From an uncultured Gammaproteobacteria bacterium (GTDB lineage: Bacteria > Patescibacteriota > Microgenomatia > CAZETR01 > Amesbacteraceae): a stretch of DNA of 64,000 nt. The first letter of the stretch is position 1. Every line of letters starts with the position of its first letter. The notes under the pieces are model-generated. The model saw only the letters and a list, made by a program, of their open reading frames with translations. It ran no database searches and had not been told where the DNA came from. The position numbers and the translations under genes are program-made. Of this stretch, positions 10,788 to 24,519 are shown one piece after another. The stretch is from assembly GCA_964518565.1 (NCBI GenBank), contig CAZFGX010000001.1:203046-267045 (forward strand). The letters are read 5' to 3'.

Positions 10788-10805
10788 TTGACTATAGGGT
10801 ATAAT
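10776..10805 (+). promoter_or_regulatory. sigma70-like promoter TTGCCG-18-TATAAT upstream of giant PA14 gene
   Basis: Sequence 'ttgccgagtaattgactatagggtataat'; ATG at 10839. Confidence 0.3.
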
Positions 10806-10838
10806 GCCTTTACTTCCTGCTCTCCTAAACACCGTCTC

Positions 10839-13800
10839 ATGAAAAAAATCATTACATTCTTTATAGGGCTTTTTGCGCTGGTTTTAGCTGGCAGCTTATC
10901 GCCTAAAAGTATATTCGCTGCGCCTCCGCAAAACTTTCAAACCTCAGCCATAATTTCTACTGGGCTAGACGGACCTAGCGGCTTCCAATTTGCCCCGGAT
11001 GGTCGAATATTTATTCTACAAAGAACTGGAGAGGTAAAAATATATAAAAATGGCCAATTACTAGCGAATAATTTCATCACCCTTCCTTCTATCGCCTCAG
11101 GAGACCGTGGATTAATTGGTATTGCCTTTGATCCTGACTATGCTTCAAATAAATATGTATATTTTTATTACACCGCCTTAGACAAGCTTAACTATTTAGT
11201 AAGATTCTCAGCCGTGAACGATACCGCCAGTGATGGTCCGGTTATTATTTACCACACTACAAGCCCATCAGAACAATTACATGTTGGAGGAGGAATAGCT
11301 TTTGGAAATGACGGAAAACTTTATTTCACGGTCGGGGATAATGGATACCCTCCAAACGCACAAAGCTTAGATAATCCACACGGAAAGATACTTCGTATAA
11401 ACAAAGATGGTAGTATTCCCTCGGATAATCCGTTTGTAAACACTCCTGGTGCTTTACCTGAAATCTGGGCATACGGGTTAAGAAACCCTTGGCGTCTACA
11501 GTTTGATAGCACTACAGGAAAATTATATGACGGCGATGTGGGTCAAAATACCTGGGAAGAAGTGAATCTAATTGAGAAGGGGAAAAATTACGGCTGGCCG
11601 ACATGTGAAGGCAATTGTGGCACTTCCGGAATGACGAATCCAATCTATACCTACAACCATGACGGCTTGAGCTCTGCAGTCACAGGTGGTCCTGTATATC
11701 GTGGCACAATGTTCCCTTCTAGCTATGTCGGCAGATATTTTTTTGCCGATTATGCCCGAGGATTTATTCGCACCCTAGGGCTGGATGCAAATGGCAATTC
11801 AACCGACATGTCTGTATTTGATGCCAATGCCGGTACGCCGGTAGACCTGAGAGTTGCTCCAGATGGTTCGCTATATTACATCACCTATTATCCTGGTCGT
11901 TTGTATCGAATCACATATTCAACAACCAACCAGGTTCCAACTGCTTCAGCCGGTAGCAATGCCACAAAAGGATTGAGTCCTTTTACCGTAAACTTCACTT
12001 CAGCCGGATCAAGTGATCCAGAGAATAATCCCTTAAGTTTTTTTTGGGACTTCGGTGACGGTCAAACAAGTACTCAAGCCAATCCGTCTCATACATATAC
12101 AAATAATGGCTCATATCTTGCTCAGCTGACTGTGAGCGATGGTGTGAATACAGTAGATGCTATCCCCATTGTCATACAGGTTGGTATCGCCCCCACGGTG
12201 ACCATTGGTATGCCTGCAAATAACTCGCAATATAAATCTGGTGATTCAATCACATACTCGGTTTCTGCTACTGATGGCGTGGGAAACGATATGAATGACA
12301 ACGATATTGGCGTTGAAATCCTATTCCACCATTTGACCCACATTCACCCGTTTTTAGGTCCTCTGTATGGCAGAAACGGTACATTTGTAATTCCCACTAC
12401 AGGTGAACCATCCGATGCTACCTGGTTTGAGATCAAAGCTACAGCCACTGACACAAATGGACTTTCAACTACGAAATCGGTTTTTATCTACCCAAAAGTC
12501 GTTGACCTGACCTTCCAAACAAACCCCACTGGCTTACAAATTACACTCGATGGCGAACCTACCACTACGCCACAAACTATAAAGCATGTTGTTGGTTTTC
12601 AGCGTGAACTTTCAGCTAATGGTCCTCAATATGTTGGTGCAGACGTTTATCAATTTTCTGGTTGGTCCGATGGGGGAGGAGCAACACATACAATTTCCGT
12701 ACCAAATGTAAACACCACATATACAGCCAATTTTACAAAAACAGGCACAGTAGTACCATTTTCTGCGCAATATTTTTCTAACCAAAACCTTACGGGTTCC
12801 CCAACACTAACCAAAAACGACAATTTTATTAATTTTGATTGGGGAATAAATGCACCTGATTCCGCAATACCTGCAGACAACTTTTCTGTTCGCTGGACAA
12901 AAACAGACTCCTTTTCAGCTGGTAGTTATGAATTCTCAGTCACAGCCGACGACGGTCTGCGTCTATATATCGACAACAACCTAGTTATCGACAAGTGGGT
13001 AGACCAAGGAGCAACAACTTATAAAACCACTCAAGTTCTCACATCTGGTAATCACACCATCAAAATGGAGTACTATGAAAATGGTTACGATGCAGTCGCA
13101 AAATTAAACTGGATTCAATTGTCGGGCAATACCCCTACACCAACACCGACATCAATTCCTAGTGACCCAAATGCATTTTCTGGACAGTACTTCAACAATA
13201 AAAGTTTGACGGGTAATCCAGCCTTCACCAGAAATGACACAAATATAAACTTTGATTGGGCAGCGGGTAGTCCAGACCCAGTAATCACAGCAGACAACTT
13301 CTCTGTTCGCTGGACAAAAACATTGAACATTACTTCAGCTGGTGATTACAAGTTCTCAGTCACAGCCGATGATGGTGTTCGACTCAAAGTTGACGGCACA
13401 ACCATCATCGACAAATGGCAAGATCAGGCAGCCTCTATCTATACATCCACCGTAAATCTGGGACTAGGTAATCACACAGTAATCATGGAATACTATGAGA
13501 ATGGTGGAGAAGCAGTAGCAAAACTATCATGGTCTCAAATCACTCAAGTTCCAACACCCACCCCAACTCCAAATACAACAAATTCATTTACGGGTCAGTA
13601 CTGGAACATAGTTTGGAATGGAAATCCACAAATTCCTTCAACGAATCCAACTCTAACCAGACAAGACTCAAATATAAATTTTGATTGGGCATTAGTTTCT
13701 CCAGGCGCTGGTATAAACGCCGACGACTTTGTTGCTCGTTGGACCAAAACCGAGACATTTACTGCTGGTACATATCGTTTCTCAGTCACAGCCGATGATG

Positions 13801-15218
13801 GTGTACGTCTGTATGTGGACAACAACCTAGTCATCGACAAATGGCAACTCCAAGGTGCAACAACATACACTACAGATCAAATCCTTAGTGCCGGCGCTCA
13901 CACCATAAAAATGGAGTATTACGAACATCAAGAGGATGCAGTAGCCAAACTCTCTTGGACGTCTTTGACAACCGTACCTACTCCAACACCTACTCCGATA
14001 GTAAGTTCCAATTCATTCACAGGTGAATATTTTAATAATACGACCCTTTCTGGGACTCCTTCTCTTACTCGAGTCGATACAGATATTAATTTCGACTGGG
14101 CAAATGGGAATCCAGGATCCCCAATCCCAGCAGACAACTTCTCTGTTCGCTGGACAAAAACATTGAACATTACTTCAGCTGGTGATTACAAGTTCTCAGT
14201 CACAGCCGATGATGGTGTTCGACTCAAAGTTGACGGCACAACCATCATCGACAAATGGCAAGATCAGGCAGCCTCTACATATAATAGTACTAAGACTCTC
14301 GCTTCAGGCAACCATACCGTAGTTATGGAATATTACGAGAACTCTGGCTTAGCAGTTGCAAAACTCTCTTTTTCTCAAGTATCTGCAGCCCCAACTCCAA
14401 CACCGACGCCGTCCTTGAGTAATACCTTTACAGGAGAATATTGGAATGTAACTTGGACTGGTATACCAAATATTCCCAACGTGCCTGCCAATGTAGTGCG
14501 TACTGATGCAGATATCAATTTCGACTGGGCGCAATTAGCCCCAGCATCAGGTATAAACGCCGACGACTTTGTTGCTCGTTGGACCAAAACCGAGACATTT
14601 ACTGCTGGTACATATCGTTTCTCAGTCACAGCCGATGATGGTGTACGTCTGTATGTGGACAACAACCTAGTCATCGACAAATGGCAACTCCAAGGTGCTG
14701 CTACCTATACAACTGACCTAGTTTTAACTGCAGGTTCTCATGCCATAAAAATGGAGTATTTCGAACATCTTTTTGATGCAGTATCCAAATTAAGTTGGAC
14801 TAGTTTGGGAACACCGACTCCTACACCAACCCCAGCTCCCACTAATAATTTTGTTGGCCAATACTTTACAAATTCAAATCTATCGGGTGCTCCGTCTCTT
14901 GAACGTACTGACGCTCAAATCAATTTCGATTGGGGTTATGGTTCCCCGGCCGGAAGTATTCCTGTAGACAACTTTTCTGCCCGTTGGACTAAAACAGACA
15001 ACTTTGTAGGTGGCAATTATCAATTCTCTGTTTCATCAGATGATGGACTAAGAATAAAAGTTGACGGTACAAGTATCTATGATCAATGGATAGATCAGGC
15101 AGCAAATCCACAAACAATTACTGTTCCAATTAGTTCAGGTAGTCACACCATTACCGTCGAATATTACGAAAACGATTTAACTGCTAGTTGCCAAGTTTCA
15201 TGGGCTGCACTTCCGTAA
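10839..15218 (+). CDS. giant secreted protein: PQQ-type glucose/sorbosone dehydrogenase beta-propeller + PKD + Ig-like + 6x PA14 domains
   Basis: Track start 10788 is TTG; ATG 10839 gives signal peptide MKKIITFFIGLFALVLAGS; GSDH motifs 'GKILRINKDGSIPSDNPF', 'YGLRNPWR'; PKD 'WDFGDGQTS'; six ~120-aa PA14 units ('FSVRWTKT...FSVTADDGVRL..DG..IDKW...MEYYE') separated by PTPTPTP linkers. Confidence 0.8.
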   Translation: MKKIITFFIGLFALVLAGSLSPKSIFAAPPQNFQTSAIISTGLDGPSGFQFAPDGRIFILQRTGEVKIYKNGQLLANNFITLPSIASGDRGLIGIAFDPDYASNKYVYFYYTALDKLNYLVRFSAVNDTASDGPVIIYHTTSPSEQLHVGGGIAFGNDGKLYFTVGDNGYPPNAQSLDNPHGKILRINKDGSIPSDNPFVNTPGALPEIWAYGLRNPWRLQFDSTTGKLYDGDVGQNTWEEVNLIEKGKNYGWPTCEGNCGTSGMTNPIYTYNHDGLSSAVTGGPVYRGTMFPSSYVGRYFFADYARGFIRTLGLDANGNSTDMSVFDANAGTPVDLRVAPDGSLYYITYYPGRLYRITYSTTNQVPTASAGSNATKGLSPFTVNFTSAGSSDPENNPLSFFWDFGDGQTSTQANPSHTYTNNGSYLAQLTVSDGVNTVDAIPIVIQVGIAPTVTIGMPANNSQYKSGDSITYSVSATDGVGNDMNDNDIGVEILFHHLTHIHPFLGPLYGRNGTFVIPTTGEPSDATWFEIKATATDTNGLSTTKSVFIYPKVVDLTFQTNPTGLQITLDGEPTTTPQTIKHVVGFQRELSANGPQYVGADVYQFSGWSDGGGATHTISVPNVNTTYTANFTKTGTVVPFSAQYFSNQNLTGSPTLTKNDNFINFDWGINAPDSAIPADNFSVRWTKTDSFSAGSYEFSVTADDGLRLYIDNNLVIDKWVDQGATTYKTTQVLTSGNHTIKMEYYENGYDAVAKLNWIQLSGNTPTPTPTSIPSDPNAFSGQYFNNKSLTGNPAFTRNDTNINFDWAAGSPDPVITADNFSVRWTKTLNITSAGDYKFSVTADDGVRLKVDGTTIIDKWQDQAASIYTSTVNLGLGNHTVIMEYYENGGEAVAKLSWSQITQVPTPTPTPNTTNSFTGQYWNIVWNGNPQIPSTNPTLTRQDSNINFDWALVSPGAGINADDFVARWTKTETFTAGTYRFSVTADDGVRLYVDNNLVIDKWQLQGATTYTTDQILSAGAHTIKMEYYEHQEDAVAKLSWTSLTTVPTPTPTPIVSSNSFTGEYFNNTTLSGTPSLTRVDTDINFDWANGNPGSPIPADNFSVRWTKTLNITSAGDYKFSVTADDGVRLKVDGTTIIDKWQDQAASTYNSTKTLASGNHTVVMEYYENSGLAVAKLSFSQVSAAPTPTPTPSLSNTFTGEYWNVTWTGIPNIPNVPANVVRTDADINFDWAQLAPASGINADDFVARWTKTETFTAGTYRFSVTADDGVRLYVDNNLVIDKWQLQGAATYTTDLVLTAGSHAIKMEYFEHLFDAVSKLSWTSLGTPTPTPTPAPTNNFVGQYFTNSNLSGAPSLERTDAQINFDWGYGSPAGSIPVDNFSARWTKTDNFVGGNYQFSVSSDDGLRIKVDGTSIYDQWIDQAANPQTITVPISSGSHTITVEYYENDLTASCQVSWAALP
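13288..13858 (+). repeat. intragenic duplicated unit copy 1 (two PA14 domains)
   Basis: 13288-13437 is 100% identical to 14128-14277 and 13711-13858 is 100% identical to 14551-14698 (840-bp offset); flanks diverged. Confidence 0.85.
14128..14698 (+). repeat. intragenic duplicated unit copy 2 (two PA14 domains)
   Basis: See copy 1; identical cores verified by direct reading. Confidence 0.85.
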
Positions 15219-16526: not shown

Positions 16527-17408
16527 GTGAAGATATCAACAAAAGTTTCGTCCGCGATTCTTATCATGGTTTCCTTAGGACTACAGGCTAGTCCTGTATT
16601 AGCATCGTATACTCCAAATTTTCCTGCGTGTCCTAATCCGGGTGGTAATCTGACCGCTCAATATAATTCAGGTTTACACGGTATTCCAGGTGACTCACAA
16701 GAATATGTTGGATCTGATTCAGTATTTCAAATTAATTCAACCCAGTGGGTTCAATGTTTTTGTCCACAAAACGGTGCAGGAATTCAAACAAACTGGTTAC
16801 TACTCCAAGATCCTTCCGAGTCTGAAATATCAGCATACAAAAACCAAGGCTGGGTATTTATTCCAGATGGATCTGCCTGGGGACTTCAAGCTGCTAGTTA
16901 TGTAGCTCAAAATAGCTCGATTTCATGTGTTGGTGGCACAGGAAATGGTAACGATAGTTCAGCAAATACCAACTCTTCTAATACATCAGTTTGTGATTCG
17001 ATCAAACCAGGCACTCCAGTATTAACTTCAATAAAACGAATAGGATCAACAGCAACCCTTTCTTGGAATCCTGTTCAAAACGCTACTCATTACTCAATTT
17101 CTTATGGAGTCGAATCAGGTAAATATTTATACGGTGTTCCGAATACAGGCAATGTGACTCAATTCACCATTGGTAGCCTAGATCCAAATAAAACTTATTA
17201 CTGGGAAGTACGAGCCGTCAACAATTGTATGCCATCAGACGCTTCCTCCCAGCCTTCAGCTGCTCGAGGTGGTGGGGATATCCTGGGTAGTTCTACAGGG
17301 TTTGCACCTACTGGAGATTGGTCAATACTTATTCTAGCTGCAGGTATTGGGTGTATATTGACTGGTCTATCAGTGGCTATGAGAAATGGCCATGAATCAA
17401 AAAAATAA
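16527..17408 (+). CDS. secreted fibronectin-type-III surface protein with C-terminal sorting-signal-like tail
   Basis: GTG start, signal peptide; FN3 'LSWNPVQNATHYSISYG...YYWEVRAVN'; C-terminus 'GFAPTGDWSILILAAGIGCILTGLSVAMRNGHESKK' (motif+TM+basic tail). Confidence 0.55.
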   Translation: MKISTKVSSAILIMVSLGLQASPVLASYTPNFPACPNPGGNLTAQYNSGLHGIPGDSQEYVGSDSVFQINSTQWVQCFCPQNGAGIQTNWLLLQDPSESEISAYKNQGWVFIPDGSAWGLQAASYVAQNSSISCVGGTGNGNDSSANTNSSNTSVCDSIKPGTPVLTSIKRIGSTATLSWNPVQNATHYSISYGVESGKYLYGVPNTGNVTQFTIGSLDPNKTYYWEVRAVNNCMPSDASSQPSAARGGGDILGSSTGFAPTGDWSILILAAGIGCILTGLSVAMRNGHESKK

Positions 17409-17895
17409 TCTCTCCAGACTTTTATTCTTTCTTGGGCTCCTTTGCTTTGTTTTTGTTGGAGTGTTGATAGTAGATCGGTTAAAAAATAATACGGTATCCT
17501 TTGACCAGCTTCCTGTCACTTCTGAGACAAATACACAACCAGACGGTATCGAAATATCTACCCAACAAATCCGACTTGCCGTTGTCTCAAAAAAAGTTGA
17601 AAAAAGCTTTCCCACATCAAAAACAACCGCTATACATATTCAAGGTACAAACATATATTACGCTCACAACTGGCCAAACTTATTTGGAAATCTTAAAAAG
17701 ATTAAAATCAACGATCCAATAGTAATCCATTTCTCCAACGGTCAAATAAAAAAATATCTGGTCACTCAAACTGAATCTGTGTGGCCATCGGACACGAGTA
17801 TTTTAAATCAGAACAATTCAGAAACGATTGTCGTCTATACATGTACGGGAGTTTTTGACATCAAAAGGTTGGTCATAGTGGCTAAATCTGTTTGA
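17386..17895 (+). CDS. sortase family transpeptidase
   Basis: N-terminal TM, conserved His region 'IHIQGTNIYYAHNWPN', catalytic 'VVYTCTG' (TLxTC) motif; overlaps 3' end of FN3 gene. Confidence 0.7.
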   Translation: MAMNQKNNLSRLLFFLGLLCFVFVGVLIVDRLKNNTVSFDQLPVTSETNTQPDGIEISTQQIRLAVVSKKVEKSFPTSKTTAIHIQGTNIYYAHNWPNLFGNLKKIKINDPIVIHFSNGQIKKYLVTQTESVWPSDTSILNQNNSETIVVYTCTGVFDIKRLVIVAKSV

Positions 17896-17917: not shown

Positions 17918-18421
17918 ATGCCATTTTTAGTTATAATTGCAGTAGTAATTTTAGGCGCAGGCATCGTGGCCAATATTGCCTCACCGAACAGTTCAGGGCC
18001 AGACGACCCTATCACCACGAGCGTGACTTCAACCCCTATTCCAACTTCATCTCCTACACCAATACCCACAATTCAACAATCCCTACCAACCCCAACAATA
18101 AAACCTGTTAATACTATCAATCCTACAAATATCGTTAACCCTACCCAAATTACCCAACCAGCTAACTGGCAATACCCTAATAGTCAAAAACGGTCTGAAA
18201 ACGAATTTGTCAGTTCAGAGTCTCCTGAAAAAATTACTCAGTGGTATAAAGACAAAATTATCGCCACTGGGTACTCAAGTAAGTCGTTTGTCCAAACATC
18301 TACAAACGCAAAAATTTTAAATAAGTTAGTTGGCGCAAAACAAAACAATGAAATTTCAGTTGAAATTTACAAAAATCCCGAGGATGCAAATACAACAATA
18401 AAAATTGCGCTTGACAACTAA
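17918..18421 (+). CDS. secreted hypothetical protein with Pro/Thr-rich linker
   Basis: N-terminal hydrophobic segment, 'TPIPTSSPTPIPT' linker. Confidence 0.4.
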   Translation: MPFLVIIAVVILGAGIVANIASPNSSGPDDPITTSVTSTPIPTSSPTPIPTIQQSLPTPTIKPVNTINPTNIVNPTQITQPANWQYPNSQKRSENEFVSSESPEKITQWYKDKIIATGYSSKSFVQTSTNAKILNKLVGAKQNNEISVEIYKNPEDANTTIKIALDN

Positions 18422-18452
18422 AAATTGCATGAGTAATATCCGAAGGTGTTTA

Positions 18453-18486
18453 AGCTGCCCAAATAAAATAAGGGCAGTTTTTTATT
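18453..18486 (+). terminator. rho-independent terminator
   Basis: Stem ctgccc/gggcag, 11-nt loop, followed by TTTTTTATT. Confidence 0.5.
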
Positions 18487-18503
18487 CTGTTTAACTAAAT
18501 AAA

Positions 18504-19079
18504 ATGAAAAAAATTACCTCAAAAAAATATTTACCAGCGCTTATTGTAATAGCATTTGCATTGATAGCTGTTGTTGGAGGGGTTAGGTTGTTATCAAAAA
18601 TAAAACAAAATAGATCAAACAGCCAAACTTCCGGGGAAAAAATATCAGTTCAAGACGCAAAAGCAACAGCCTCGGTAAATCGAGAGTTCTCATTTCCTAT
18701 AAAAGATAGTTCGAATAAAAAAATTACAGACCTAAAATTTATAATTGAATCAGCAGAGTTAAGAGATGAAATAATTGTTAAGGGTAGTCGAGCTACAGCT
18801 GTAAAAGGTCGGACGTTTCTAATTTTAAATTTAAAAATTACGAATAATTTCAACAAGGCTCTTCAAATTAATACCCAAGATTATTTTAGACTGACAGTAA
18901 ACAATTCAAATGACGACTTACTTGCTCCCGACATCCACAATGATCCGTTAATTATTCAGCCAACATCGACAAAATTTACTCGAGTTGGCTTTGCAATAAA
19001 TGATTCAGACAAAAATATTGTCCTACAAGTAGGTGAGATCGATGGAGAAAAAACAAAGATCGAACTAAACCTACAATGA
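18504..19079 (+). CDS. membrane-anchored DUF4352-like protein
   Basis: N-terminal TM; 'ATAVKGRTFLILNLKITNN...FRLTVNNSND' resembles DUF4352 beta-sandwich. Confidence 0.4.
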   Translation: MKKITSKKYLPALIVIAFALIAVVGGVRLLSKIKQNRSNSQTSGEKISVQDAKATASVNREFSFPIKDSSNKKITDLKFIIESAELRDEIIVKGSRATAVKGRTFLILNLKITNNFNKALQINTQDYFRLTVNNSNDDLLAPDIHNDPLIIQPTSTKFTRVGFAINDSDKNIVLQVGEIDGEKTKIELNLQ

Positions 19080-19291
19080 AAAAAAACACTCACATGGTTT
19101 CTCAAGAAGTTTTGGCAGAAATCGTATCTAGTCTTCAGGCGATCGACACTCATGGAAGTGTAGAAATATTTATTACCGATGGGCAAGTCAATCAAATTAC
19201 TGTTCGTAACATTAAAAAAACCACGCGGAAAAATCAAACTCCTGAAAAAAGTATCAACAAAGTACTTGACAAAGCTATATCAATATACTAA
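19076..19291 (+). CDS. YezD/DUF2292-like small protein
   Basis: 71 aa, 'HGSVEIFITDGQVNQITVRN' pattern; ATGA overlap. Confidence 0.45.
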   Translation: MKKNTHMVSQEVLAEIVSSLQAIDTHGSVEIFITDGQVNQITVRNIKKTTRKNQTPEKSINKVLDKAISIY

Positions 19292-19364
19292 ACAAATAGT
19301 ACAAACAACTTCACATCCTGTTTCTTTCCACTGCCCCTGGATATGAAGCAAAAAAGCTGACCGC

Positions 19365-19435
19365 AAACGGAGGCTTCTCTATCTTTAAATGGTCGTATAT
19401 TTCGACCCAAAGATCGAGGAGCCTCCGTTTTTTTT
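19365..19435 (+). terminator. long compound hairpin + U8 intrinsic terminator
   Basis: 15-bp outer stem aaacggaggcttctc/gaggagcctccgttt (one G-U), inner pairs atcttt/aaagat and ggtcg/cgacc, then TTTTTTTT. Confidence 0.6.
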
Positions 19436-19502
19436 AAAAATCGGGGGGATTCCCGAGAGTCAAAAAATACTTTAAGAAAGGGGGTGAAAATTAAAAAATA
19501 AT

Positions 19503-20747
19503 ATGACAACTTTCAAAAAGAAAATTGCTGCTGCATTAACTTCTGGTGCAATGTTTTTGAGTATGACAAGTACAGCCTTTGCTTCTACCTCAATTGAAGT
19601 AACAGGAAATGGATATGATTCGTCAAATTCATCAAATGTAAGTGCTCAAACCTCAACAAATGTAGTCCAAGATAATTCAGCTTCAGTCTCAAACCGTGTC
19701 AGTTCTTCTAGTAATACTGGAGGAAACAAAGCCGATCAAAACACAAACGGCGATGTAATCATCCGCACAGGCGACGCTCAAACAAAAGTGAATGTCGACA
19801 ATATGCTAAACAGTAACAAAGCTATGCTTGATTGCTGCAGCACTGCAGGTGACACTGACGTAACTGTTTCTGGTAACGGTGCCAAGTCAAATAGTGATGT
19901 CTCTCTTTCAAAGGATGCAAACACTTCAGTGTTTCAAACCAATGTAGCAGATGTCAAAAATGATATTGACGCTATTGCCAAAACAGGTGAAAACCAAGCC
20001 AACCAGAATACTGGTGGAACCGTTAACGGTGGTGTTGCTATCCGTACAGGAGATGCAAGAACCAACGTTGATGTGGCTACTGCTGCCAACGTAAATGTGG
20101 CACAAGTAGGTGGTAACGGTCATGTCGCAGGTGACACTACTGCCAAAATCATTGGCAATGGTTACAACTCCGACAATAGTATCGACTTGAGTGAAAATAA
20201 CTCTACAAACGTTGTTCAAGACAACTATGCAGATGTATATAACTCAATCGAAGCCGATGCTAAAACTGGTTACAACAAAGCCAACCAAAACACTGGTGGT
20301 GATACACTCATTTACACTGGCGACGCCAAAGTAAATGTAGCCGTCGATAATATGGTTAACTTCAATTGGGCAAACGTTGATTGCGGATGCCAAATGAGTG
20401 ACCTCGCAGTAAAAGTCGCAGGAAATGGTGCCGATTCATGGAATGATGTTGCTGTCAGTCACGATAGCGCAAAAGACGCATTCCAAACCAACGATGCCAA
20501 CCTAGACAACTGGGTCGATGGAAATGCCAAAACTGGTGACAATTCAGTCAAACAAAGTACTGGTAGTGTCAATGGAGATCCAGCTATCTGGACCGGAGAT
20601 TCAGCTTCATCATTTGATGTAGCAAATTCTGGTAACTCCAACAGTTACGGTAGTGATATGCCTGCATCTTGGCCAAACATGTCAAACATGGATTTCCACT
20701 TTAGCTTTTCGCTAGGTGATCTCATGGCCTGGGCTGGTCATAACTAA
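19503..20747 (+). CDS. secreted Asn/Gly/Thr-rich repeat protein (paralog 1, 4 repeats)
   Basis: Signal peptide; four ~95-aa repeats with GNG..S.N, Q.N.A.V.N, TG.N.A.QNTGG, I.TGDA...V.V.N and CC/CGC pairs. Confidence 0.65.
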   Translation: MTTFKKKIAAALTSGAMFLSMTSTAFASTSIEVTGNGYDSSNSSNVSAQTSTNVVQDNSASVSNRVSSSSNTGGNKADQNTNGDVIIRTGDAQTKVNVDNMLNSNKAMLDCCSTAGDTDVTVSGNGAKSNSDVSLSKDANTSVFQTNVADVKNDIDAIAKTGENQANQNTGGTVNGGVAIRTGDARTNVDVATAANVNVAQVGGNGHVAGDTTAKIIGNGYNSDNSIDLSENNSTNVVQDNYADVYNSIEADAKTGYNKANQNTGGDTLIYTGDAKVNVAVDNMVNFNWANVDCGCQMSDLAVKVAGNGADSWNDVAVSHDSAKDAFQTNDANLDNWVDGNAKTGDNSVKQSTGSVNGDPAIWTGDSASSFDVANSGNSNSYGSDMPASWPNMSNMDFHFSFSLGDLMAWAGHN

Positions 20748-20759
20748 AATTTTTGTGTA

Positions 20760-20785
20760 GTGTCCCGCCAGATATGGCGGGACAC
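20760..20785 (+). other. perfect palindromic hairpin (11-bp stem, 4-nt loop)
   Basis: gtgtcccgcca-gata-tggcgggacac between paralog 1 stop and paralog 2 ATG (20810). Confidence 0.5.
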
Positions 20786-20809
20786 CCACAGAAATTAAAT
20801 ATATTTAAA

Positions 20810-22912
20810 ATGAAAAAAATTATTAGCTTACTCACCATTTTTATAGTTTTCTCTTCGCTGATTACTCCAGTATCGGCTCTAGAGACTCCTATCGCACCCA
20901 CTGCCCCAGATGCACCTATTGCCCCAACAAGTGAACCAGCACCCACTGCCCCTTCTGCTCCAGCAGCGCCAACCTCACCCTCACAACAACAAACAGAACC
21001 TACTCCACGTCCAACAAGATCACCCAGAACTGAAAATTCTTCAAGTACTGATTCATCTACAATGTCAAATCCAACACCAACGAGCGCTCCTGTTTTGACT
21101 CCGGCAACAACCCCTGCAAAAAATAATATAGTAACTGGAAACGATACAAATTCTGCAATATCTACTACAACTGGAAATTCAAACGCGACAGGAAGTTCGC
21201 AAAGCAGTTCTGCAGGTTCAAACTCAATAATAAATACCGAAAATGGTGCTTATTCAGAAAACCATGGGGTAATAAATCAAAATTCTGATTCACAGACTAT
21301 ACAAAATAACGATGCGAATGTTCAAAATGATTTAAATCAATCAAGTAATACAGGTAATAATTCAACCTCATTTTCCGTTGGTGATACAGCAATAAAAACC
21401 GGAGACTCAAATGTATCAGGTACCGTAATTAATAGCGTAAATACAAATATTGATGGAGTATCGGTAGCAGAGTTTAATATTGCTGACACGCAAAAAGGTG
21501 ATTATATTTTAGATTTCGCCAAAAACTGTATCAGTGGCTGTTCTAATGGTGCAAATTTGGCTCAAAACAGTGGAAACGGTGCATATTCACAAAACACCGC
21601 CAATATCGATAACAATCAAAATAACGCGACTTTTCAGTCAAATGACGCTACTGTCGGAAATAAATTAGTACTATCTGCTGATTCAGGTAACAATAACGCA
21701 AATTACAATACTGGAGGTAGTTCTCAAATCCAAACTGGAGATGCAAATGTTTCAGCGAATGCACTAACGTTTGCAAACAATAATTTAAATGGAAATGTGT
21801 TGTATGGAGTCGTAAACATTTATGGTGATTTATATGGCGATATCCTTTTTCCAGAAGAAATTATCTCAAATGCAAATAATGGCGCAAATTCAAATAATCA
21901 AAGTTCAATCGCAACAAATAATACAAACCAAACCTTCCAAAGTAATAATGCAGATCTAGATAATACGGTACTAATAAATGCCAACACCGGCGACAATAGC
22001 ACCACAGGCAATACAGGTGGCGATTCCGGAGTTCTTACTGGAAACGCAAATGTAACAACACAAACACTAAATGTGGCAAACAATAATATTGATAGTGGTA
22101 CTACCTGGTTAGTGTTAGTCAACCAAGCTGGAAATTGGCTAGGACAAATAGTCGGGGCGGCCGGATCAAATTACGCAGGTTCTATAGGCACTCAATTTTC
22201 AGTGTCGCCATCAGGTGCAATTACTGCCTCAAACACTGGAAATGGTTCAGGTTCAGATAATCAAACAAACATTAATCAAACAAATACCAATGTCACCAGT
22301 CAATCAAACAATGTAAATGTGCAAAATGTACTAGATCTATCAGCAAATACTGGAAATAATAGTGCCAATTACAATACGGGCGGGGATTCTGCAATAAAAA
22401 CAGGTGACGCAAATATCGTTGCAAACTTAGTAAACTTTGTAAATAACAACGTTTCTTCAAGTGGTAAGTTAGTTGTAACAGTCGTAAACGTTTTTGGTTC
22501 ATGGGTAGGAGACCTGGTAACCCCTGGACAAAAGCAACAAAAATATACATCAGCAGCTCCAGCTCCTGTTGGCGGCGCAGCCATTCAAACGAACAATATA
22601 GTACCAGTATCTACATCTGCCGCCACCCCTACGCCAACTGTTGCAACCAGCATACTTGTCCAATCCAGCTCCAAATCGGATTCTACTCAAAACGTTACAA
22701 AAAATATTTCAAACACAAATAGGAGTAAAGTGTTGAGTCTGAATACGTCAAAAACAAATGACTCAAGTATTGATGAACCCGCAGTCTCATCTATTCAGCT
22801 TGCTCAGCCACAAAAAAAGATCGTCAAAATAAATTTGGCCTGGCTAATATTAAGCTTGCCATTAATTGGAGTAGGTATTTTAGTGAAAAAACTTCGTGTT
22901 CGAAAAAGCTAA
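20810..22912 (+). CDS. secreted Asn-rich repeat protein (paralog 2) with Pro/Ala linker and C-terminal TM anchor
   Basis: Track start 20753 is TTG; ATG 20810 gives signal peptide; 'APTAPDAPIAPTSEPAPTAPSAP' linker; repeats 'TGNNSANYNTGGDSAIKTGDANIVANLVNFVNNN'; C-term 'LAWLILSLPLIGVGILVKKLRVRKS'. Confidence 0.65.
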   Translation: MKKIISLLTIFIVFSSLITPVSALETPIAPTAPDAPIAPTSEPAPTAPSAPAAPTSPSQQQTEPTPRPTRSPRTENSSSTDSSTMSNPTPTSAPVLTPATTPAKNNIVTGNDTNSAISTTTGNSNATGSSQSSSAGSNSIINTENGAYSENHGVINQNSDSQTIQNNDANVQNDLNQSSNTGNNSTSFSVGDTAIKTGDSNVSGTVINSVNTNIDGVSVAEFNIADTQKGDYILDFAKNCISGCSNGANLAQNSGNGAYSQNTANIDNNQNNATFQSNDATVGNKLVLSADSGNNNANYNTGGSSQIQTGDANVSANALTFANNNLNGNVLYGVVNIYGDLYGDILFPEEIISNANNGANSNNQSSIATNNTNQTFQSNNADLDNTVLINANTGDNSTTGNTGGDSGVLTGNANVTTQTLNVANNNIDSGTTWLVLVNQAGNWLGQIVGAAGSNYAGSIGTQFSVSPSGAITASNTGNGSGSDNQTNINQTNTNVTSQSNNVNVQNVLDLSANTGNNSANYNTGGDSAIKTGDANIVANLVNFVNNNVSSSGKLVVTVVNVFGSWVGDLVTPGQKQQKYTSAAPAPVGGAAIQTNNIVPVSTSAATPTPTVATSILVQSSSKSDSTQNVTKNISNTNRSKVLSLNTSKTNDSSIDEPAVSSIQLAQPQKKIVKINLAWLILSLPLIGVGILVKKLRVRKS

Positions 22913-22951
22913 AAAAACACGTCCTAAATAATTAGGACGTGTTCTTTTTTT
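22910..22951. terminator. bidirectional intrinsic terminator between convergent paralogs
   Basis: A7-acacgtcctaa-ataa-ttaggacgtgt-TCTTTTTTT. Confidence 0.65.
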
Positions 22952-22959
22952 AAGAGCAA

Positions 22960-23553
22960 TTATAGCGAGTTACTTGCTCCTGCAACCACAACTTCCACTT
23001 GTGACGTTGTTGAACCAGTACTGATCTCAACCCCATTTCCTGTATTTAGCTTTGATTTATTTTTACCAGTAGAAGCTTTTGATGTAATCGCGTTCGACAC
23101 TTTAGTTTTTGACTTTTGTTCAGTAATCAAGGCTTTAGCTGAAGAAACCTCGACTTTATTTTTGGATTTTGCTCCATTTCCATCCACTAAAATATCTACA
23201 ACCGTCTCACTGCAACCACAACAAGAAGGCGCAGTAGCGGTATTTTCGCCGCCAATCACACTGACAGATACACTTGATGTTGCATCACCTGTATCGATCG
23301 AATTTAGACCACCAGTATTCATATTTGCAGTATTACTGCCTGTCGATGACGAAGATGAAATAGAATTAGTCACCACAGTACTGCTCATTTGAGTAACTGA
23401 TGAAACACAATCCATTGACATGGCAATTTTATTGTGTGACATAGCTCCATTTCCAGTTATTTCAACTGAAGCAAACGCGGCACTGGTAGCGGAAACAAGC
23501 AGCATTCCCGCACCAGCTGTTACAACTGCAAATCTTTTAATCAGAAAAGTCAT
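22960..23553 (-). CDS. secreted Asn/Gly/Ser-rich repeat protein (paralog 3)
   Basis: AGGAGG 7 nt upstream of ATG (MTFLIKRF...); signal peptide; 'ITGNGAMSHN', 'NTGGLNSIDTGDATSSVSV', 'SCCGCSET', 'VDGNGAKSKN' motifs shared with paralogs 1 and 2. Confidence 0.6.
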   Translation of the reverse strand: MTFLIKRFAVVTAGAGMLLVSATSAAFASVEITGNGAMSHNKIAMSMDCVSSVTQMSSTVVTNSISSSSSTGSNTANMNTGGLNSIDTGDATSSVSVSVIGGENTATAPSCCGCSETVVDILVDGNGAKSKNKVEVSSAKALITEQKSKTKVSNAITSKASTGKNKSKLNTGNGVEISTGSTTSQVEVVVAGASNSL

Positions 23554-23624
23554 ATATATCACCTCCTTTCGTCTCTTATTTTAATTTAAATAATCAAAGC
23601 ATAATCTGTCAACCAACAAATCAC

Positions 23625-23654
23625 TTGACGGTGCTCATACTTGAATCCCATAAT
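23625..23654 (+). promoter_or_regulatory. putative promoter TTGACG-18-CATAAT
   Basis: Ends 7 nt before ATG 23662, suggesting a leaderless or short-leader transcript. Confidence 0.25.
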
Positions 23655-23661
23655 AGGCTTC

Positions 23662-24519
23662 ATGCATTTATTTGCTCCTCATCATACGAACAATCAAAGG
23701 GCAAAACTTCTTCATCCAACAGGCCTTTTAATTTTACTATTCATGATTGTTGGTATTCAGGTAATACTAAGATCAACTGCCCATTATTTACCTCAGGTAT
23801 TAGGATATGCCGCTCAAATACCTAGCTCAGAAATAATTCGTTTAACAAATATAGAGCGTCAGCAACGAGGTCTTTCAGAATTAAAATTCGATGAAAAATT
23901 ATCTCAGGCAGCACAAAAAAAAGCAGTAGACATGTTCTCTAAAGATTATTGGGCCCACGTTTCTCCTGTCGGCACACAGCCTTGGTTTTTTATCACCGAT
24001 GCAGGCTATTCATACAGATATGCAGGCGAAAATTTAGCTCGCGACTTCACTGACCCAAATTCTGTAGTTCAGGCTTGGCTCGCCTCTCCTTCTCATCGAG
24101 AAAATGTATTAAATAATCGATACCAAGATATAGGTGTTGCAGTAGTTGATGGAAAATTAGGTGGAAGAGAGACAACTTTAGTTGTTCAAATGTTTGGCAC
24201 AAAGTTGTCTGCTCAAACTCAACCAAGGTTAACCGACGCCACTTCAATCAATGTAAAGGCTGCTGAACCACTTCCTACTACTCGACCCAAACCAAACTCC
24301 TTGGGCGCGTCTACAAACTTACAAGTCTCCCCATTTGATATTACAAAATATTTTGCTTTATTCGTGTTAAGTCTGCTATTAGTTGTATTAATAATTGATA
24401 TTTTTGTAGTAAATCGAAAAAATCTCGTTCGCTGGACCAGCAAAAGCCTGGCTCATTTAATTTTTGTAGTTGTTATAATCACAGCTGCTGCATTAATTGT
24501 TAGAGGTCAAATCATTTAA
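23662..24519 (+). CDS. CAP/SCP (YkwD-like) domain protein with C-terminal TM
   Basis: 'YWAHVSPVG...YAGENLA...WLASPSHRENVLN' CAP motifs; track start 23641 is TTG. Confidence 0.55.
   Translation: MHLFAPHHTNNQRAKLLHPTGLLILLFMIVGIQVILRSTAHYLPQVLGYAAQIPSSEIIRLTNIERQQRGLSELKFDEKLSQAAQKKAVDMFSKDYWAHVSPVGTQPWFFITDAGYSYRYAGENLARDFTDPNSVVQAWLASPSHRENVLNNRYQDIGVAVVDGKLGGRETTLVVQMFGTKLSAQTQPRLTDATSINVKAAEPLPTTRPKPNSLGASTNLQVSPFDITKYFALFVLSLLLVVLIIDIFVVNRKNLVRWTSKSLAHLIFVVVIITAAALIVRGQII

Follow-up and report, generated by a model that had tools for sequence, protein, structure and literature searches.

What do three neighbouring genes for repeat proteins on contig CAZFGX010000001.1 of an uncultured bacterium (assembly GCA_964518565.1, Amesbacteraceae) encode, and what could their products build? 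The 64,000-nucleotide stretch analysed here (positions 203,046 to 267,045, forward strand) is called the window. An earlier reading of the letters alone (the sequence-only reading) had described three paralogous secreted proteins which share one repeat in two to four copies each, and had proposed them as a novel family of curlin-like surface fibres. The open reading frames (ORFs), named A, B and C, were confirmed at the positions listed below with four, four and two copies of one common repeat, respectively. Their products very probably represent an exported, partly anchored beta-solenoid surface protein family. The family is large and unnamed, and it is conserved as an operon across Microgenomates, ultra-small bacteria of the candidate phyla radiation (CPR).

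19503-20747, + strand: gene A, 414 amino acids (aa), with a signal peptide (aa 1-28), four repeats and a 29-aa C-terminal tail; proposed major secreted subunit
20810-22912, + strand: gene B, 700 aa; proposed low-copy membrane-anchored base
22960-23553, - strand: gene C, 197 aa, with a signal peptide and exactly two repeats, nothing following the second

The repeat unit was measured as 85-90 aa, shorter than the about 95 aa given before. The 10 units (four from A, four from B and two from C) were aligned nearly gap-free over about 85 columns, ten of which are invariant (N8, G9, S12, Q28, N36, G45, N47, T61, G62 and N77), and the consensus was GNGxxSxN...QxNxAxVxN...AxTGxNxAxxNTGGDxxIxTGDAxxxVxVxNxxNxN. 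A hidden Markov model (HMM) of the repeat was searched against the six-frame translation of the 64-kb window and matched solely ORFs A, B and C, with per-repeat E values of 1e-24 to 1e-34 and a marginal half-unit match at the start of B. By BLASTP, A and C showed 38% identity across about 198 aa, and many internal matches were found among the three proteins. Sec-type signal peptides were read on all three, with the cleavage site between AFA and S in A and C and between VSA and L in B. Judged by these sequence features, the three are paralogs of one another and exported repeat proteins, as had been proposed.

19587-19853, 19854-20135, 20136-20402 and 20403-20657, + strand: four repeats of A (HMM E 1e-26 to 1e-34)
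21221-21499, 21554-21814, 21860-22120 and 22220-22489, + strand: four repeats of B (HMM and alignment)
23197-23469 and 22963-23196, - strand: two repeats of C, with CCxC between them (Cys residues within 111-114)

The composition of the repeat ORFs is biased (N 14-16%, S 12-18%), as it would be in low-complexity Asn/Ser-rich ORFs possessing no real repeat fold. Such an artefact is effectively refuted by conservation: hundreds of full-length orthologs, the invariant columns, a fixed synteny, the signal peptides and a consistent structure prediction all stand against it. Neither of two outcomes named beforehand as contrary to the sequence-only reading, a confident HMM match to a described family or a disordered or low-complexity structure, was found.

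The invariant N, G, Q and T residues occupy equal positions in each repeat unit. Asn/Gln ladders and tight turns of solenoids show this kind of recurring pattern, and invariants which recur in each unit fit structural ladders, not a single active site. It is accordingly hard to see secreted beta-helix enzymes, e.g. polysaccharide lyases or hydrolases, in these proteins, and we consider that explanation highly improbable. One isolated repeat matched Glyco_hydro_49 (E 0.018), and no real lyase or hydrolase match was obtained from Pfam or NCBIfam; the periodic residues offer no single catalytic constellation, and the family holds forms with 1, 2, 3 and 4 repeats.

The sequence-only reading had suggested structure prediction as a check for a beta-solenoid, and the AlphaFold2 model of A was in agreement with it. 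With 48 sequences the mean predicted local distance difference test score (pLDDT) was 64.7. With 120 sequences it rose to 75.3, a value of at least 70 being reached by 311 of 414 residues, and the predicted template modelling score (pTM) was 0.64; the shallower first model led to the same structural result. In the model, which is all-beta, four equivalent units are followed by a low-confidence linker and a C-terminal helix (residues 404-413). The predicted fold is composed of stacked beta-strand coils which form a rod, i.e. the right-handed parallel beta-helix or beta-solenoid class. Structural matches of the model were partial and of low identity (6-17%), HxuA being among them with 80 residues at 1.9 Å, and therefore a fold class was assigned and no family. 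Among known structures, the flattened right-handed parallel beta-helix of the SufD/SufB type is close as a fold class, while RTX domains were mid-rank matches only. Foldseek of the model against PDB gave no significant match, the best being FapC (E 0.023, TM-score below 0.1); the low TM-scores are probably due to the long-rod shape of the model. Column autocorrelation over 606 repeat units from relatives showed the period-2 signal of beta-strands with weak bumps at 22 and 46, and no clear sub-repeat of about 22 aa was detected within the unit of about 90 aa.

The curlin-like character claimed earlier stands in the predicted fold class and not in sequence. The curli repeat has 19-23 aa (Sx5QxGxxNxAx3Q) compared with about 90 aa here. 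No match to Curlin_rpt (PF07012) was found with whole proteins (E<=1) or single repeats (E<=10), and hhalign of the repeat profile against Escherichia coli CsgA returned a probability of 0.14%. Genes for csgEFG-type export were also absent near A-C and from the synteny of 80 loci.

Searches for a described family were equally negative. Pfam and NCBIfam, queried with A, B, C and each single repeat, gave only noise (CoA_transf_3, GltJ, Grg1; E 0.005-0.06), and a PDB sequence search with A, B and three profiles gave no match. In a word-indexed database 479 homologs of A and 530 of B were found, typically 45-60% identical and of constant length, while only 3 other word-sharing homologs of C were present. 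The A and B homologs carry no Pfam domain, and all are annotated as 'hypothetical' except one with an automatic JGI label of 'autotransporter adhesin'. They belong to Amesbacteria, Gottesmanbacteria, Woesebacteria, Levybacteria, Daviesbacteria, Roizmanbacteria, Chisholmbacteria and unclassified Patescibacteria. Two contigs labelled outside these lineages, L059 (Nealsonbacteria) and L080 (Acidiferrales), show identical synteny and are probably mis-binned or carry placeholder names; a homolog labelled Actinobacteria was also among the matches. A single-repeat profile retrieved 3204 representatives of 50%-identity clusters, from Microgenomates and all without a name, among 1.84 billion. By this distribution the window derives from a Microgenomates (CPR) genome. 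The claim of novelty thus holds in that no described family matches, and fails in that the family is not rare, with thousands of 'hypothetical' entries. The literature on surface proteins of Microgenomates and CPR yielded no paper on this repeat family, and PMC7143001 deals with another Microgenomates genome. The kind of system, an anchored beta-solenoid surface polymer or adhesin, is known; no description of the family, of its operon with four paralogs or of its conservation throughout the lineage was found in the sources searched.

To define the operon, a comparison was made of 80 loci in species-representative genomes plus two on metagenome contigs (L001-L082), their ORFs being classed by the repeat HMM and by jackhmmer profiles of the window neighbours. 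The gene order is near-invariant: p167 (not in all loci), a DUF4352-like gene, a DUF2292-like gene, A and B, followed in most loci by a further paralog D, a sortase gene and C on the opposite strand. A possesses 4-5 repeats (about 410 aa), B 4-5 (700-800 aa), D 1 or 3 and C 2. D is the third repeat gene on the + strand, situated after B (11715-12881 in L034, 11470-12054 in L001), and the sortase gene is always next to it. Its C-terminus consists of a Gly/Pro/Ser-rich spacer and one of two signals. The first is LPATG, LPVTG, LPITG or similar, followed by a transmembrane helix and a basic tail like YLRLRSGRSP; the second, found in one-repeat variants, is (V/I)LGL(S/A)xT(S/A)G with a transmembrane helix. 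A CC motif was also seen after the D repeats in the loci read. The window lacks D and the second sortase, as do about a dozen other loci. The conserved gene order and the anchored paralogs B and D in relatives bear out the earlier idea of a dedicated surface locus.

B begins with its signal peptide, followed by a Pro/Ala spacer, a degenerate half-repeat, four repeats with inserts, a Ser/Thr/Pro stalk and a C-terminal transmembrane anchor; the linker (aa 24-106) and the anchor (aa 674-692) had both been recognised before. An earlier ATG at 20774, chosen by gene callers, is a possible alternative start. Each repeat is followed by a hydrophobic, hairpin-like insert specific to B, e.g. KLVVTVVNVFGSWVGDLVTPG.

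20879-21127, + strand: Pro/Ala/Thr/Ser-rich spacer of B (aa 24-106)
21455-21517, 21791-21859, 22097-22156 and 22463-22528, + strand: hydrophobic inserts specific to B (from sequence)
22523-22828, + strand: Ser/Thr/Pro-rich stalk of B (aa 572-673)
22829-22885, + strand: transmembrane helix of B, INLAWLILSLPLIGVGILV (aa 674-692), then KKLRVRKS

Despite the transmembrane helix and the basic tail, no LPxTG-like motif is present in B. The conserved motif is INLAW, which is kept together with the helix in L001 and L002. A C-terminal LPxTG-like sorting signal is likewise absent from A and C, while it is present in D of other genomes and a related FAPTGD is found in a fibronectin type III (FN3) protein of the window. 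A ends in ...LMAWAGHN and C in ...GASNSL, with no sorting motif or membrane anchor on either. Mature A begins directly with repeat 1, and in 39 orthologs mature C begins at the cleavage site and ends 0-2 residues past repeat 2. The four paralog classes comprise two tethered forms, B by a transmembrane helix and D by sortase, and two free forms, A and C, with no or minimal terminal extensions.

20658-20744, + strand: C-terminal tail of A (conserved Pro; alternating strand with aromatic residues, DFHFSFS; amphipathic helix), kept in orthologs

A carries two Cys pairs, CC at the junction of repeats 1 and 2 (19833-19838) and CxC at the junction of repeats 3 and 4 (20382-20390). C112, C294 and C296 are invariant across a 48-ortholog alignment; across 120 orthologs C294 and C296 remain invariant and C112 is conserved in at least 90%. 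From the arrangement of repeats and Cys residues, A is therefore two C-like modules in tandem. Disulfides or bound metal may form cross-links at these conserved CC and CxC motifs. Net charge per 100 aa is -13, -7 and -6 in the acidic repeat regions of A, B and D, in contrast to C, which is near-neutral to basic (median isoelectric point 7.9). Asp-rich turns along with the strong negative charge hint at a dependence on Ca2+.

A orthologs (about 410 aa, always 4-5 repeats) are 45-62% identical and B orthologs have a median identity of 44%; across class-level lineages the values are about 48% for A and about 44% for B. This bears on an explanation in which the proteins are non-polymerising beta-helix rods, anchored (B and D) or loosely bound (A and C), which serve in adhesion to a host cell or substrate. 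Many beta-helical surface proteins do act as monomers, and known beta-helix adhesins (PfbA, the binding region of L. reuteri SRRP, autotransporter and TpsA passengers) are single, anchored and capped ones. Here, unlike in those adhesins, the most conserved members A and C are anchor-free and belong to a multi-paralog operon. A and C possess no anchor or wall-binding domain, and C has no capping residues at all. Host-binding adhesins usually vary, while A and B are 44-48% identical with fixed length and repeat number across class-level lineages. As the architecture of four anchored and free paralogs is also left unexplained by it, we regard monomeric adhesion as a doubtful account.

The signals for expression were analysed along the locus. 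The sequence-only reading had placed strong terminators on both sides of the genes, which was borne out by a hairpin with U8 before A and a bidirectional terminator in the 47-nucleotide (nt) gap between B and C.

19365-19435, + strand: intrinsic terminator, long hairpin followed by U8, which ends the upstream operon
19480-19487, + strand: Shine-Dalgarno sequence of A, GGGGGTGA
20748-20796, + strand: hairpin directly 3' of the A stop codon, without U-tail (minimum free energy (MFE) -32.4 kcal/mol, z -9.3)
22911-22948, both strands: bidirectional intrinsic terminator between convergent B and C, with stems of 12 and 17 pairs and T-runs on both strands
complement of 23559-23569, - strand: Shine-Dalgarno sequence of C, AAAGGAGGTGA, 7 nt before ATG
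23612-23583, - strand: promoter-like TTGACA-18-TAAATT of C (from sequence)

Since the upstream operon ends at this terminator, transcription of A starts separately. The 214-nt leader at 19292-19505, which includes the terminator hairpin, folds with an MFE of -66.4 kcal/mol (z -5.4). The terminator element ...GCCTCCGTTTTTT recurs at the equal place in related loci, and a GGAGGTGA/GGGGGTGA element is also present there. No recognisable Shine-Dalgarno sequence was found before B, while the strong ribosome-binding site described for C was confirmed, as AAAGGAGGTGA. The hairpin after A is a candidate attenuator or 3' stabiliser which would separate the expression of A from that of B. A homologous hairpin was found in 77 of 77 related loci (median MFE -31.9 compared with -14.2 in shuffled sequences), with a conserved outer stem and a covarying inner stem. 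Rfam gave no match for the hairpin or the A leader, from the window or from L005. Hairpins also follow major pilin genes, which is comparable, and the layout of signals is as would be expected if A were made in large excess over B.

Some further features of this hairpin were observed. In relatives its loop is usually GCACUUC, a motif lacking in the hairpin of the window. Hairpins with a CACTTC loop were located in 1.27 Mb of loci, and 70 of the 99 lie within 80 nt after the A stop codon. GAAGUG(C), the reverse complement of the loop, is present in the A leader of 64 of the 72 loci with the loop motif and in 0 of the 10 without it, about 59 nt before the A start codon (interquartile range -66 to -52). 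In 63% of loci the loop has a Watson-Crick complement of 7 nt or more in the leader, compared with 4.3% with shuffled leaders. Variant pairs that are still complementary occur in L028 (AGGUGCA/UGCACCU), L049 (CAAAGUA/UACUUUG) and L062 (GAAAGU/ACUUUC). This complementarity suggests either 5'-3' pairing within the A mRNA or paired protein-binding DNA sites flanking A.

We propose a surface polymer, a fibre or a coat, whose abundant secreted subunit is A and which is seeded or tethered by the anchored paralogs, and we hold the chances of this proposal to be evenly balanced. A, B and C would be exported by the Sec pathway and their signal peptides removed. A would be the abundant free subunit, being strongly acidic and having four repeats, its own leader, a strong Shine-Dalgarno sequence and a hairpin after the gene. 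The open solenoid ends of A could stack strand to strand, through edge strands, onto the cell-bound paralogs. B would be held to the cell by its C-terminal transmembrane helix, on long Pro/Ser/Thr-rich stalks; as its gene possesses no Shine-Dalgarno sequence, a low copy number is proposed for it. In most relatives D would be linked to peptidoglycan by its dedicated sortase through LPxTG. C, with two repeats, no extra residues, a neutral to basic charge and its own promoter, may be an accessory subunit (adaptor, cap or alternative subunit). The product would be an anchored surface fibre or coat with a role in envelope structure or attachment, and the high conservation of A and B favours a structural envelope role rather than that of a variable adhesin.

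This scheme resembles known surface polymers in its logic. A and B would correspond to the major subunit CsgA and the nucleator CsgB of curli, from which they differ in sequence, and anchoring here relies on a transmembrane helix or sortase, which is what would be expected where an outer membrane is lacking. The chaplins of Streptomyces comprise long ChpA-C with a sortase signal and short secreted ChpD-H. Similarly, in related loci with D, one repeat domain is found in sortase-anchored multi-domain paralogs and in small secreted ones; the anchored forms would hold a surface polymer as in chaplins, and conserved Cys pairs are present in the secreted forms of both. The chaplin domain differs in being about 40 aa long and hydrophobic, while the repeat described here is about 90 aa, polar and acidic, and no match to Pfam chaplin (PF03777) was obtained. 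A further difference is that the window has no sortase-anchored paralog, and B is an additional membrane-anchored one.

Another explanation is a two-dimensional S-layer-like lattice of A which B and D would hold in place and which might require Ca2+, as with the beta-helical RsaA. We judge this unlikely. No SLH, CWB2 or similar anchoring domain was found with Pfam or NCBIfam, and neither A, B, C nor the single repeats matched the RTX nonapeptide GGxGxDxUx (HemolysinCabind). A, at 414 aa, is small for an S-layer protein, RsaA of the Caulobacter S-layer having 1026 aa. RsaA uses type I secretion and binds lipopolysaccharide, and A-C share no RTX-type motif or sequence similarity with it. The lattice overlaps with the polymer proposed above and differs from it only in geometry; the data fit sheet and fibre alike.

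Several points weigh against a polymer of A. Its polymerisation, surface location, abundance, stoichiometry and biological role are what we infer from the features above, as are the high expression and the fibre or amyloid formation put forward in the sequence-only reading, and the A model is only moderately confident (pTM 0.64). The conserved C-terminal tail of A could cap the end of the rod and thereby keep rods from stacking end to end. A wall-anchored component is not universal, D and its sortase being missing from the window; the monomeric action of many beta-helical surface proteins, mentioned above, also counts here. More tentatively, the principal polymer outside Microgenomates cells might be encoded here, a beta-solenoid fibre or sheath resembling functional amyloid in which acidic A is templated on B and sortase-anchored D. 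The locus would then be an independent, CPR-specific counterpart of curli and chaplins, and the A mRNA of most lineages would be controlled or stabilised by pairing between the 5' leader and the 3' loop.

To our knowledge no member of Microgenomates has been grown in pure culture, and we found no paper on which molecules make up their cell surface, where contact with hosts or substrates presumably takes place. The locus is among the most conserved lineage-specific features found: its gene order is fixed, class-level groups share about 45-50% identity, and entries in databases number in the thousands. If a surface fibre or coat is indeed formed, it would be a candidate for the envelope structures seen in cryo-electron microscopy of ultra-small cells, a marker family for Microgenomates and an independent way for cells lacking an outer membrane to anchor a beta-solenoid polymer. 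These proteins are secreted and of small size, and in vitro work on them is possible without cultivating the organism.

The neighbourhood of the locus in the window was annotated as follows.

16527-17408, + strand: FN3 protein (Pfam fn3), with a C-terminus of FAPTGD, transmembrane helix and basic tail resembling an unusual sorting signal
17386-17895, + strand: sortase gene, 169 aa (Pfam Sortase), overlapping the FN3 gene by 23 nt
17918-18421, + strand: p167, with an N-terminal transmembrane helix, a Pro/Thr-rich linker and a small C-terminal domain; no Pfam match
18504-19079, + strand: membrane-anchored DUF4352-like protein (weak Pfam DUF4352, E 8e-4)
19076-19291, + strand: small DUF2292-like (YezD-like) cytoplasmic protein without signal peptide (Pfam DUF2292, E 8e-5)

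The sequence-only reading had put the repeat genes directly after the sortase/FN3 pair; this was corrected, as the sortase gene and A are separated by three genes (17918-19291). The FN3 protein and the overlapping sortase are probably a substrate-enzyme pair, which is also found upstream in a subset of related loci. Action of this sortase on A, B or C was considered and rejected, as all three are devoid of a sorting motif while the FN3 gene, which the sortase gene overlaps, encodes one. Among the three intervening genes, p167 precedes A in roughly one half of related loci and the DUF4352-like gene is directly upstream in nearly all of the 80. The DUF2292-like gene overlaps the latter by 4 nt and is immediately before A in most of them. 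The products of these two genes may act in regulation or in assembly. Just past C, a CAP/SCP-domain protein with a C-terminal membrane segment is encoded at 23641-24519, and it holds the same position in several related loci. Further upstream, 10788-15218 encodes a secreted protein of 1476 aa which contains a glucose/sorbosone dehydrogenase beta-propeller, a PKD domain and six PA14 domains with TPTPTP linkers between them.

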